This document shows positions 1-10,623 of a stretch of DNA of 10,623 nucleotides, in pieces (the stretch's first letter is position 1; every line of letters starts with the position of its first letter). The notes below the pieces were generated by a model. The model saw only the letters and a program-made list of their open reading frames with translations, was not told the DNA's origin and ran no database searches. The stretch lies in assembly GCF_003334815.1 (NCBI RefSeq), contig NZ_QOWO01000061.1. One strand, 5' to 3'. The position numbers and the translations under genes are program-made. The DNA is from Escherichia coli (GTDB lineage Bacteria > Pseudomonadota > Gammaproteobacteria > Enterobacterales > Enterobacteriaceae).

Positions 1-1
1 A

Positions 2-39
2 GGGGTCGTCTCAGAAAACGGAAAATAAAGCACGCTAAG
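2..39. repeat. 38-bp terminal inverted repeat of a Tn21-subgroup transposon (tnpA-proximal end)
   Basis: Sequence GGGGTCGTCTCAGAAAACGGAAAATAAAGCACGCTAAG at the extreme end. The tnpA stop codon (TAG, complement of 35-37) lies inside it, as is typical of Tn3-family elements. Confidence 0.85.
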
Positions 40-3001
40 CCGGTTGCAGAGGCCGTAGCGGCCTGAACTTCCCCGCGCCGATCTTGGCGCTGCTGCGCCA
101 TAGGTAATCACCGGTCAGGTTGATGTGCTCCCAGCCGAGTGGCGACAGGTACTGCAATAGCGAGTCATCGACGGCATGACCATTGCCGCGCAACGCATGC
201 GCCGCACGCTCCAGGTAGACCGTGTTCCACAGCACGATGGCCGCCGTCACCAGGTTGAGGCCGCTGGCCCGGTAGCGCTGCTGCTCGAAACTGCGGTCAC
301 GGATTTCACCAAGGCGGTTGAAGAACACGGCACGGGCCAGCGCATTGCGCGCCTCGCCCTTGTTCAGCCCGGCATGCACGCGGCGGCGTAGCTCGACGCT
401 TTGCAGCCAGTCGAGGATGAACAGCGTGCGCTCGATGCGGCCCAACTCGCGCAGCGCGACGGCCAAGCCGTTCTGGCGCGGGTAGCTGCCGAGTTTCCTG
501 AGCATCAGCGAGGCCGTCACCGTGCCCTGCTTGATCGAGGTGGCCAGCCGCAGGATTTCGTCCCAATGGGCGCGGACGTGCTTGATGTTGAGCGTGCCGC
601 CGATCATCGGCTTGAGCGCGTCATAGGCGGCATCGCCCTTCGGGATGTAGAGCTTGGTGTCGCCCAGGTCGCGGATGCGCGGCGCGAAGCGGAAGCCCAA
701 GAGGTGCATCAGGGCGAAGACGTGATCGGTGAAGCCCGCCGTGTCGGTGTAGTGCTCCTCGATCCGCAGGTCGGATTCGTGGTACAGCAGGCCGTCGAGC
801 ACGTAGGTTGAGTCGCGCAGGCCGACATTGACCACCTTGGTGTGGAATGGCGCGTATTGGTCGGAGATGTGGGTGTAGAAAGTCCGTCCTGGGCTGCTGC
901 CATATTTTGGGTTGATGTGCCCCGTGCTCTTTGCCTTGCTAGCGGTTCGGAAATTCTGTCCGTCCGATGATGATGTGGTGCCATCGCCCCAGTGCCCGGC
1001 AAAGGGATGCCGAAACTGAGCGTTGACCAGTTCAGCCAACGCTGTCGAGTACGTTTCGTCGCGGGTATGCCAGGCTTGCAGCCAAGCGAGCTTCGCGTAG
1101 GTCGTGCCGGGGCAGGACTCGGCCATCTTGGTCAGGCCCAGGTTGATCGCGTCGGCCAGGATCGTGGTCAACAACAGGTTCTTGTCCTTGGCCAGATCGC
1201 CCGATTTCAAGTGCGTGAAGTGCCGGGTGAAGCCCGTCCACTCATCGACTTCGAGCAGCAGTTCGGTGATCTTGACGTGCGGCAGGACCATGGCTGTCTG
1301 GTCTATCAGCGCCTGCGCGGTGTCGGGCACCGCCGCATCCAGCGGCGTGATCTTCAAGCCCGACTCGGTGATGATGGCATCCGGCAGGTCGTTGGCTGCC
1401 GCCATGCGGTTGACGGTGGCAAGTTGTGCTTCCAGCAGCGTCAGCCGCTCATGCAGATATTGTTCGCAGTCGGTGGCCACGGCCAGCGGCAATTCGCTGG
1501 ACTGCTTGAGGCTGGTGAACTTCTCGGGCGGTACCAGGTAGTCCTCGAAGTCCTTGAACTGGCGTGAACCCTGCACCCAGATGTCGCCCGAGCGCAGGGA
1601 GTTCTTCAACTCGGACAGCGCGCACAGTTCGTAGTAGCGCCGGTCGATGCCGGCGTCGGTCATCACCAGTTTCTGCCAGCGCGGCTTGATGAAGCCGGTC
1701 GGTGCATCGGCTGGCAGCTTGCGGGCGTTGTCGGTGTTCATGCCGCGCAGCACCTCAATGGCATCAAGCACGTTTTTGGCGGCGGGCGCGGCCCGCAGCT
1801 TGAGCACGGCAAGGAATTCCGGTGCATAGCGGCGCAGGGTGGCGTAGCTCTCGCCGATGCGATGCAGGAAATCGAAGTCATCGGGTTGCGCGAGCTTCTG
1901 CGCCTCGGTGACGCTCTCGGCAAAGGAATCCCAGGACATGACGGCCTCGATGGCGGCAAACGCATCGCGGCCTGATTGCTTGGCGTCGATCAGCGCCTGA
2001 CCGATGCGCCCGTACAGACGTACCTTGGCGTTGATGGCCTTGCCTGACGCCTGGAACTGCTGCTGATGCTTATTCTTGGCAGCGTTAAACAGCTTACCCA
2101 GGATGCGGTCGTGCAGGTCGATGATTTCGTCGGTGACGGTGGCCATGCCCTCGGTGGCCAGCGCCACGAGAGTGGCGTAGCGCCGTTGCGGCTCGAATTT
2201 GGCCAGGTCGGCGGGTGTCATCTGGCCGCCCTCGCGGGCAATCTTGAGCAGGCGGTTCTGGTGAACCAGCCGCTCGATGCCGGTAGGCAGATCGAGTGCC
2301 TGCCATGCCTTGAGGCGTTCGATGTGTTCCAGCATATGCCGCGAATTTGGCTTGGCCGGAGACTGGCGCAACCAAGCCAACCAGGTCGTCTTGCCGTTGT
2401 CCCGGCGCTTGAGCAGATCGTCGAGGCGGCGGCGATGCGCGTCCGCCAGTGGTTCGGCCAAGGCGTCGTAGATGCGCCGGTTAGCACGGGTGATCGCCTC
2501 GGCACTCGCCCGCTCGACGGCGTTGAGGGCGGGCAGAATGACCGACTGCCGCCGCAGGTGCCCGATCAAGGCGCTGGCCAGCACGATGCCTTTGTCGGTT
2601 TGCATCGCCAGCTCGGTCAGCATCTGGACGGCCTGCCGGTAATGGCTCATGGTGAAGGGCCGGAAACCGAACACGGTTTGCAGCTCGCTCAGGTGCTCGC
2701 GCCGGGTCTGCTCCCGCTGGCCGTACTCGTTCCAGCTTTCGACGCCGACCTTGAGCTGGTCGGCGACCAGCTTCAACAAGGGCGGGAACGGTAGTTCATC
2801 GACGCCCAGGATGACGCCGGGAAAGCGCAGGTAACAGAGCTGCACCGCGAAGCCCAGCCGATTGGCTGGCCCGCGCCGCTGTCGGATGATCGAGAGGTCG
2901 GTATCGTTGAATGTGTAATGTCGGATCAGGTCGTCCTTGGAGTCCGGCAACGCCAGCAGGCTTTCCCGCTCGGCGGCGGACAGGATGGAACGACGTGGCA
3001 T
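35..3001 (-). CDS. tnpA: Tn3-family (Tn21-type) transposase TnpA, 988 aa
   Basis: Single uninterrupted 2967-nt ORF. Length and sequence recognised as Tn21-type TnpA. ATG at 2999-3001 (complement), stop inside the terminal IR. Confidence 0.96.
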
Positions 3002-3003
3002 AT

Positions 3004-8167: not shown

Positions 8168-8342
8168 CGTCCGTTCGGGCATCGAGGTCCATGTCGGGGT
8201 GGGACGGGCCCGTGGCTTCAAGATCACTTGCAGTCCGACCGCGATGTCTTGGTTGCGCGAGAGGTTGTCGATATCTGTTGATTTGCACCCAAATTTGACC
8301 CGGGATTTGCATTGAATTTTGACCCACCCCTTGTTGTCAGAA

Positions 8343-9128
8343 TTATGTCTCGATTTTCAGTTTGCGGGTCTGTTTTTCCTCCTGCTTATTCTGAGTTGAA
8401 CTGTGTTTGAAGCGGTAACTTTCATTGCCGGTTTCCAGGATGTGGCAGTGGTGGGTTAGTCGGTCCAACAACGCTGTTGTCATCTTTTCATCGCCAAACA
8501 CTCGGCTCCATTCCGAGAAGCTCAAGTTGGTGGTCAGTATCACGCTGGTTTTTTCGTACAGCTTTGAGAGCAGGTGAAACAGCAGTGCCCCACCGGTTTG
8601 GCTAAAAGGCAAATATCCCAGCTCATCCAGAATCACCAAATCGGCATACAACAGACGGTTTGCGATTTGTCCCTGACGCCCAGATGATTTCTCTTGCTCC
8701 AGTGCATTGACCAAATCCACGGTGGAGAAGAAACGCACCCGTCGGTTCAAGTGCATCACTGCTTGTGTACCAATGGCTGTGGCCAGGTGAGTCTTGCCTG
8801 TGCCTGGCCCACCAATCAGCACCACGTTCTGGGCTTGTTCCATGAAGTCGCACCGGTGCAATTGTTTGACCGTGGCCTCATTAACCAGGCTTTGACTGAA
8901 GTCAAAGCCCACCAAGTCCCGATACACGGGGAACTTGGCCACCCGCAATTGATAGTTCACCGAACGTACTTCACGCTCTGCCACTTCAGCTTTAATCAAG
9001 CTGTCCAGCATGGGCAAGGCTTGATTAAATGCTGGTGAATTCTGATTGCCCAACTCCTCAATGGCGTGTGCCATGCCAAAGAGTTTCAAGGATTTGAGGA
9101 TTCTCACATGGCCTTCATGCTGCATCAT
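8343..9128 (-). CDS. istB: IstB, IS21-family ATP-binding transposition helper protein, 261 aa
   Basis: Walker A motif GGPGTGKTH and Walker B region LVILDELGY. Overall similarity to IS21 IstB/DnaC-like ATPases, recognised as the IS1326 type. Confidence 0.93.
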
Positions 9129-10623
9129 GGGCTCTCCTTAAACTGTCATAGCGGTTCACGTTGGCCTGTGGTTCCAATGTCAGCCTTAACCCCTTGGGAA
9201 TTGGAATCGGTTTGGGTGGAGGTTCTTCGGTCAAACGTCCCAACAGATTAAGCACATGCTCCTTCGATGGCTTGCCACACTCCAATGCCAATTCCACAGC
9301 ACTGAGTACCGCACCTTCATCGTGGTGCAATACAAGGGCCAGAATTTCCACCATGTCACGGTCACCGCCGGGGCGTTGCAGCAAGATGGATTGAAGCTTC
9401 TTGAACGCGGGTGGCAATTCAGCAAATGGCGCACCATTGCGCAACGCCCCAGGTTTCTTCTGAAGCACAGACAAGTAATGGTGCCAGTCGTATTGTGTGT
9501 GGCCACGCCGAGCGTGGCCACTGCCAAACAATCTTGGATGCTCGGCAATGTGTTGGCCTTCGGCAGCCATCACCAGCTTGTCTGCATAAATCCGAAGGCT
9601 GATGGCCCTGTTGGCGTAACTGGCAGGAACGCTGTAGCGATTGCCCTCGTGGTGAACAAGGCAGGTTGAAGTGACTCGCTTGGTTTGCTCCACGAATGCA
9701 TCAAAGGCATTGGGTAGCGCCATCAACTCGCCTTGTTCATCGGCAAAGGCCTCTTGCACGGTTTGGTCCAATTCGGGGTGGCGCAGCTCAGACCACAGCG
9801 CTTTGCAGCGATGCTCAAGCCACACATTCAAATCAGCAAGGCTTTGAAAGTCTGGTGCCCCTTGCCACAGGCGTTGGCGGGAATCCTGCACGTTCTTCTC
9901 AATCTGGCCTTTCTCCCAACCCGATGCTGGATTACAGAACTGCGCATCAAACAGGTAGTGGCTGACCATGGCAGTGAACCGCTGATTGACCCTGCGCTCT
10001 TTGCCACGCCCCACCGAATCCACAGCGGTCTTCATGTTGTCGTAGATGCCGCGCTTGGGAATGCCACCGAAGATTTGAAAGGCATGCCAGTGGGCATCAA
10101 ACAGCATTTCATGTTTTTGCTGGTAGTAAGCCCGAAGCACAAAGGCCCGGCTGTGGGCCAACTTAAACTGGGCAATCTGAAGTTTGACCTGTTTGCCCGC
10201 TATGCGGGCAAAGTCCTCACTCCAATCGAATTGGAAGGCTTCGCCACAAGCAAAGCGCAAGGGGATGAAACAACCCTTGCCCGAGGTTTGCGCCTTGAAC
10301 TGTTCGGAATCTTTCCACTGTCGGGCAAAGGCACACACTCGGTCATAAGACCCGGTAAAGCCCAAAGCGACCAAATCCCGGTACATGCTGCGCAGGTTTC
10401 TGCGCAGCTTCTTTGTCTTTTTGTGCTCGGTGGAGAGCCACTGCCTTAACTTGGGCTCAAAAGGACTTAACTTGCCAACGCTGTCTCGCGCTGGGTACTG
10501 CGGTTCAACCACCTTGCTTTGCAAATACTTGCGAACGGTGTTCCTGGACAGGCCGCTTCGTCGGGCTATTTCCCGAATCGACGCACCATCGCGAAAATGC
10601 CAGCGTCGAATTGCGCTCAATAT
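9115..10623 (-). CDS. istA: IstA, IS21-family transposase (N-terminal HTH, DDE catalytic core); 5' end at or just beyond the window edge
   Basis: Long ORF with an N-terminal helix-turn-helix ([19 protein letters not shown]) and DDE-type integrase core. The frame is open to the window end. The first in-window candidate start is TTG at 10618-10620 (complement), and the codon before it is not a stop. Confidence 0.9.

Follow-up and report, generated by a model that had tools for sequence, protein, structure and literature searches.

Tn21 is among the best-characterised mobile resistance elements, and its copy on plasmid R100/NR1 (NC_002134.1), the element's original home, serves as the natural reference for related DNA. 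Against that reference, a second copy on the ECOR 3 plasmid RCS85_pI of Escherichia coli (NZ_LT985321.1) and an integron-free mercury transposon backbone on the Leclercia plasmid pZ96-1_3 (NZ_CP040894.1), we have compared a stretch of 10,623 nucleotides from E. coli (assembly GCF_003334815.1, contig NZ_QOWO01000061.1), the whole of which is referred to here as the window. Judged by its sequence, the window is almost certainly the 10.6 kb at the tnp end of Tn21, a composite resistance transposon built here of three nested layers: a Tn3-family backbone, the class 1 integron In2 and the insertion sequence (IS) IS1326. It shares with R100 the same terminal inverted repeat (IR), res region, tnpM stump, TCCAT pentanucleotide, pair of cassette promoters (PcW and P2), aadA1 cassette, 2,025-bp 3′-conserved segment (3′-CS) and IS1326 junction. 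Every defining feature that could lie within it is present; it is ordinary Tn21, already known, and its mechanisms are those of the textbook.

Sequence identity carries this assignment. When the whole window was compared by megablast with 72,556 plasmid records, at least 5,000 records matched, and among the matches listed dozens of plasmids cover 100% of the window in a single piece at approximately 100% identity; the annotations common to these full-coverage plasmids are a Tn3-like transposase, a recombinase, intI1, aadA1, qacEdelta1, sul1, a GNAT gene, and the istB and istA of IS1326. The alignment with R100/NR1, 10,624 columns long, has no mismatch and a single gap. RCS85_pI, the sole exact match found and probably the source molecule or its clone, is 100% identical over the full window length. 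Identity, gene integrity and all boundaries were read directly: no segment of any length lacked a match to the reference in the megablast search or the R100 comparison, and relative to R100 there are no substitutions or frameshifts in the listed genes. An earlier note, made from the letters alone, had predicted that the window would be nearly identical to the R100 Tn21 from end to end, with an unchanged gene order. This is what was found, with no unmatched segment above 100 bp and no altered gene, except that one attC base is missing relative to R100. Nothing of substance counts against the assignment: attC is one base short relative to R100 and to about 2,000 other plasmids, and the window stops before the site that separates the R100 form of the element, with IS1353, from the IS1353-free form. 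The window can be set aside as a familiar element without hidden coding capacity; its value is that of a negative result only, although it also recalls that “tnpM” is properly annotated as the remnant of an EAL+DUF3330 gene.

The sequence just past the window is where the two full-length records part. In R100, IS1326 is broken up by IS1353 (IS3 family) some 100 bp past the point equivalent to the window end (R100 locus approximately 22720-24310), a feature that went unmentioned in the earlier note, which otherwise had the canonical Tn21/In2 order right. By contrast, the Tn21 copy of NZ_LT985321.1, which shows no difference within the window, 59-nt attC included, has an intact IS1326 with no IS1353 that runs straight into tniB-delta/tniA (locus 10700-10817), the IS1353-free form of In2. 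The discriminating sequence past the window end is TTTACCCTAAGTGGGTCAATTTT where IS1326 is intact and TTTACCCTAAGTTGGGGTGCGG where IS1353 is present, as in canonical In2. Beyond the window, R100 and NZ_LT985321.1 continue with tniB-delta, tniA, the repeat IRt followed by TCCAT, urf2 and merEDACPTR, so that the remainder of the IS, the tni remnant, IRt, urf2 and the mer genes are all present where they had been predicted. The resistance to be expected is to streptomycin/spectinomycin and sulfonamides, with weak quaternary-ammonium tolerance and, just beyond the window, presumably mercury.

The named modules (IRtnp, tnpA, tnpR, res, tnpM, IRi, intI1, PcW with an active P2, attI1, the aadA1 cassette, qacEdelta1, sul1, orf5, istB and istA) are all intact, and the features listed below leave outside them only positions 1, 3002-3003 and 4066-4242, the last being a known non-coding part of the 5′-conserved segment (5′-CS). 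It is worth considering whether a further, unannotated gene or system could nonetheless be hidden here, for example in open reading frames (ORFs) antisense to tnpA, tnpR, istA and orf5, as opposite-strand ORFs of 136-242 aa do exist. Ten such long ORFs, antisense or out of frame and lying over tnpA, tnpR, tnpM/IRi, orf5 and istA, were considered as genes and rejected: none has an NCBIfam match at E≤0.01, each is wholly overlapped by a strongly supported gene, and long spurious antisense ORFs are to be expected by chance because the DNA there is 52-66% G+C. An Rfam scan (evalue mode) for structured RNAs returned only the attI1/AAC_AAD_leader element above its gathering score; a mir-598 match was rejected as chance level (23.9 bits against a gathering score of 69). 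Apart from the IRi-like repeats at 4047-4091, every family in the repeat scan was a short pair of low identity, such as GC-rich DNA commonly yields by chance. We therefore consider a hidden gene extremely improbable. The earlier note's accounting for every substantial ORF and for the intergenic DNA agrees with the NCBIfam scores and annotations, and its statement that the window holds no candidate for a new defence, toxin or metabolic system stands, in that NCBIfam, Rfam and repeat scans gave nothing further.

At its left end, the window consists of a Tn3-family backbone:

1: flanking base (A), the only flanking base in the window
2..39, + strand: IRtnp, the 38-bp Tn21 terminal inverted repeat, an exact match to GGGGTCGTCTCAGAAAACGGAAAATAAAGCACGCTAAG
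35..3001, − strand: tnpA, Tn3-family (Tn21 subgroup) transposase, 988 aa (NF033527 transpos_Tn3; WP_001138064.1 in R100 and LT985321.1)
3004..3564, − strand: tnpR, serine resolvase, 186 aa (serine-recombinase family matches; WP_000147567.1, “recombinase family protein”)
3565..3689, no strand: res region (resolvase binding/crossover sites), the 125-bp non-coding gap between tnpR and tnpM (motifs and knowledge of Tn21)
3690..4040, − strand: “tnpM”, 116 aa, 3′ remnant of urf2M (EAL+DUF3330) (C-terminal EAL matches, reconstruction and intact copies)
4036..4040, no strand: TCCAT, left 5-bp target-site duplication made by In2 (second TCCAT after IRt in R100)

The repeat and the transposase gene overlap, as the 38-mer occupies 2-39 and the tnpA ORF ends at 35. 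In R100 the partner repeat, IRmer, matches at 35 of 38 positions and lies approximately 19.6 kb away, and TAATA flanks both ends of Tn21. TnpA scores 1328.7 bits against NF033527 (NCBIfam cutoff 500); its gene and tnpR share the minus-strand orientation, with res upstream of tnpR. Within 3565-3689 are TGTCA at 3581 and 3615, TGACA at 3668, and CTGAC at 3644 and 3667, but we assign res as a whole region rather than by its three subsites, following established knowledge of Tn21. The biochemical activities of these proteins are taken from the literature: TnpA would act on the 38-bp IRs to yield cointegrates, which the serine resolvase TnpR would then resolve at res.

The history of the integron can be read from the tnpM gene, which was listed in the earlier note as one of the genes of the window; the ORF is indeed present, but it is a gene fragment and not an independent gene. 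Its NCBIfam matches are confined to the final 40-60 residues of EAL-domain cyclic di-GMP phosphodiesterases. When the window up to 4040 was joined to the stretch that lies after IRt in R100, with one TCCAT removed, the reconstructed urf2M proved to be an uninterrupted 328-aa ORF with a complete EAL domain at residues 12-245 (Pfam, E 2e-70) and a DUF3330 domain at 262-328 (E 5e-37). Intact copies are found by tblastn in plasmids at 99.4-99.7% identity, among them pZ96-1_3, where an uninterrupted urf2M of 99.7% identity lies between merE and tnpR; RefSeq names these intact copies simply “DUF3330 domain-containing protein”. The coordinates concerned are 26974-27642 of the R100 locus and 4013-4999 of the NZ_CP040894.1 locus. 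The latter holds an empty site, with a single TCCAT and 95 nt across the insertion point that are exactly the predicted pre-insertion sequence. Target duplication and empty site, both observed, demonstrate directly that urf2M was the target into which In2 transposed, duplicating 5 bp, as the literature states (PMC5052281), and as a consequence tnpM starts at an internal Met codon inside the duplicated TCCAT. In2 is a defective Tn402-type class 1 integron, inserted in urf2M with duplication of TCCAT and leaving tnpM behind as a 3′ stump.

The stump keeps the whole DUF3330 domain, which adjoins res on its upstream side, and only a stub of EAL. The older literature proposed that tnpM is a transposition modulator, and the remnant, with its complete DUF3330 beside res, may have such a role; as a source of novelty in the window this is a weaker alternative to a functional effect of the shortened attC, discussed below. 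Inspection of the sequence found nothing resembling a Shine-Dalgarno sequence before the ATG of tnpM.

The integron-free backbone of NZ_CP040894.1 shows what the transposon looks like in the absence of In2. It is 99.95% identical to window positions 23-4040, its TnpR protein is identical to that of the window, and its gene order is merRTPCADE, urf2M and tnpR, with TCCAT occurring once and urf2M intact as the 328-aa EAL+DUF3330 gene; it resembles Tn5060. In this backbone (locus approximately 8665-9736), the match to the window ends 22 nt into the 38-bp IR, beside an IS4321-family transposase gene. Insertion sequences of the IS4321/IS5075 type target transposon IRs of this kind, and from its sequence the IRtnp of NZ_CP040894.1 looks to have been interrupted by one of them.

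To the right of the TCCAT begins the 5′-CS of In2, with the integrase gene, the promoters and the attachment site:

4041..5395, no strand: 5′-conserved segment of class 1 integron In2 (IRi exact match, repeat scan, sequence read)
4041..4065: IRi, 25-bp repeat (exact string match; preceded by TCCAT)
4070..4091: second IRi-like repeat, 19-22 nt (repeat scan)
4243..5256, − strand: intI1, class 1 integron integrase, 337 aa, R32/H39 variant (NF011946)
5141..5169, + strand: Pc in its weak variant PcW, TGGACA-N17-TAAGCT, inside intI1 (exact string)
5260..5288, + strand: P2 in its active form, TTGTTA-N17-TACAGT with a GGG insertion (exact string)
5335..5427, + strand: attI1 and cassette leader (RF02912, small ORFs)
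5335-5388, + strand: ORF-17 of the leader
5361-5399, + strand: ORF-11, with Shine-Dalgarno GGAG at 5349-5352 (8 nt upstream); the cassette core GTTAAAC provides its stop codon, TAA

The integrase scores 799.5 bits against NF011946 with positions 1-337 of 337 of the profile covered (NCBIfam). The promoter variants are direct observations, and the naming of PcW follows PMC8876359; the GGG insertion in P2 creates its 17-nt spacer and at the same time shifts the spacing of the LexA box from CTG-N10-CAG to CTG-N13-CAG (5266-5288). No CTG-N10-CAG box was found in 5201-5330, which is consistent with the published account of active P2. In that account, from which we also take the promoter strengths, an active P2 is almost exclusively paired with PcW and accounts for about 90% of cassette transcription (PMC8876359). 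By the same account, intI1 should here no longer be under SOS repression by LexA. The single aadA1 cassette would then be transcribed from PcW and the GGG-activated P2, with the ORF-11/ORF-17 leader upstream, and IntI1 would recombine attI1 with folded attC sites, attI1 ending at G5395 and its crossover lying at G5395|T5396. The Rfam model RF02912 (AAC_AAD_leader / attI site) matches 5349-5427 at 73.9 bits, above its gathering score of 56; we read the region as attI1/ORF-11 and not as a riboswitch, following the description of the leader ORFs in PMC8876359.

It is at the cassette that the window departs from R100:

5396..6250, + strand: aadA1 gene cassette, 855 bp (856 bp in R100), between G|TTAAAC and G|TTAGAT
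5405..6196, + strand: aadA1 coding sequence, 263 aa, streptomycin/spectinomycin adenylyltransferase (NF033126)
6198..6256, + strand: attC (59-base element) of aadA1, 59 nt against the canonical 60 (R100 comparison)

The AadA1 protein scores 596.5 bits against NF033126 (NCBIfam cutoff 587), with 100% identity by AMRFinder in the matching records. The attC of aadA1 is 60 nt in R100 and 59 nt in the window, and the cassette is 855 bp long, because of a 1-bp deletion: one C of GACGCCGC at approximately 6222-6224, in the apical stem of attC, is absent, and the site reads GACGCGC. This is the sole difference from R100. A 75-nt query spanning the deletion matched 2,100 plasmid records; NZ_LT985321.1 alone is identical to it, and 1,978 fall at 95-99%, a band that includes the canonical attC form at 98.7%. 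The 59-nt attC is in none of the 5,426 complete E. coli genomes searched; 840 of these carry the site, and their best full-length matches are all at 98.7%. Likewise, the exact 36-mer of the variant occurs 0 times in 100,044 species-representative genomes, where the canonical 37-mer, as a control, gives 74 loci.

Such rarity bears on two explanations of the missing base. The first is a sequencing or assembly artefact, in which case the element is simply identical to the R100 Tn21 here; the variant is a singleton in every collection searched and falls within a GC-rich palindromic stem, and we put this explanation at slightly better than even. Yet a genuine singleton mutation would look identical, and there is no direct evidence of error. 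The second is a genuine private mutation that would slightly destabilise the apex and might alter excision of aadA1 or read-through into the 3′-CS. Consistent with this, the same base is absent from the deposited NZ_LT985321.1, and the bottom-strand single-stranded DNA fold is weakened by 4.7 kcal/mol, from −18.8 kcal/mol for the canonical site to −14.1 for the 59-nt form. However, the variant occurs in one record among 2,100 plasmids, in none of the E. coli genomes and in none of the species genomes, against the 74 canonical loci, and a G+C-rich hairpin is a classic place for sequencing or assembly errors; we consider a private mutation plausible but somewhat short of an even chance. On balance we lean slightly towards error over private mutation.

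Even if the deletion is real, its consequences may be small. The predicted fold of the 59-nt attC keeps the R″/R′ and L″/L′ stems and both bulged bases and gains one extra apical bulge; the R and L boxes and the extrahelical bases, which are known to matter for recombination, are unchanged, which argues against a functional effect. The apex of an attC site, its variable terminal structure (VTS), is the least constrained part, and therefore little functional effect of the deletion would be expected. That the 59-nt attC is both real and measurably alters the frequency of excision or integration, or transcriptional or translational read-through into qacEdelta1-sul1, strikes us as quite improbable; were it so, the archetypal attC site would have, in this copy, a naturally occurring mutant of its apex (VTS).

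The remainder of the window, to the right of the cassette, matches R100 throughout:

6251..8275, + strand: 3′-conserved segment, 2,025 bp, truncated by IS1326 (junctions read; IS1326 junction identical to R100)
6359-6706, + strand: qacEdelta1 (NCBIfam QacE-type SMR, 206.1 bits)
6700-7539, + strand: sul1 (NCBIfam Sul1, 641 bits), overlapping the qacEdelta1 stop
7667-8167, + strand: orf5 (GNAT; NCBIfam GNAT matches)
8276..10623, − strand: IS1326 (IS21 family), 2,348 of 2,470 bp in the window, its terminal inverted repeat starting TGTTGATTTGCACCC at 8276
8343-9128, − strand: istB (NF038214 IstB, 283.7 bits)
9115 to beyond 10623, − strand: istA (NF033546 IS21 transposase, 326.6 bits)

Here IS1326, with its istA and istB, truncates a 3′-CS made up of the fixed qacEdelta1-sul1-orf5 array. 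The two IS genes, for the transposase (istA) and its AAA+ helper (istB), overlap at 9115-9128, and istA starts at the window-equivalent position 10638, 15 nt outside, so that its first 5 codons lie beyond the window, as does the IRL of the element. Both carry the PGAP label “IS1326 family”, and the ends of the element, TGTTGA... and ...CTCAACA (NZ_LT985321.1 locus 10817), give exactly 2,470 bp; the earlier designation “IS1326-like” identified the right element in terms that were too weak, as it is IS1326 itself. The cargo of the window is accordingly streptomycin/spectinomycin and sulfonamide resistance with an attenuated qac pump, and the AadA1, Sul1 and QacE-type SMR matches in NCBIfam agree with the streptomycin/spectinomycin, sulfonamide and partial quaternary-ammonium resistance first proposed.

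It is informative to examine the aadA1 attC type in a wider phylogenetic setting. The 74 loci that carry its 37-nt core among the species-representative genomes include 44 in the Xanthomonadales, counted by record titles, in the genera Thermomonas, Luteimonas, Pseudoxanthomonas, Lysobacter, Xanthomonas, Stenotrophomonas, Arenimonas and Rhodanobacter. Often there are several copies per genome, for example in Thermomonas fusca, T. beijingensis and Luteimonas arsenica, and these are chromosomal and lie beside cassettes other than aadA; it is chiefly in the outer R boxes that the 60-nt sites at these loci depart from that of aadA1. The attC of aadA1a has been assigned to a Xanthomonadales-type family (PMC8352920), and the pattern reproduces that assignment and is therefore not new. 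Only 14 of the 74 loci have an aadA-like gene, none of these in Xanthomonadales. The idea that the aadA1 ORF came from a Xanthomonadales chromosome was rejected for the 74 loci: the aadA1-like matches, whose mobile-integron contexts were not checked, are all in other taxa, with none in a Xanthomonadales array. At three loci, including one in Comamonas testosteroni (CP044131.1), aadA genes only 90-94% identical to aadA1 are followed by an attC that has this 37-nt core, and diverged aadA alleles therefore share this attC type. Directly downstream of the aadA locus in C. testosteroni CP044131.1 lies a second aadA-like segment, 66% identical.

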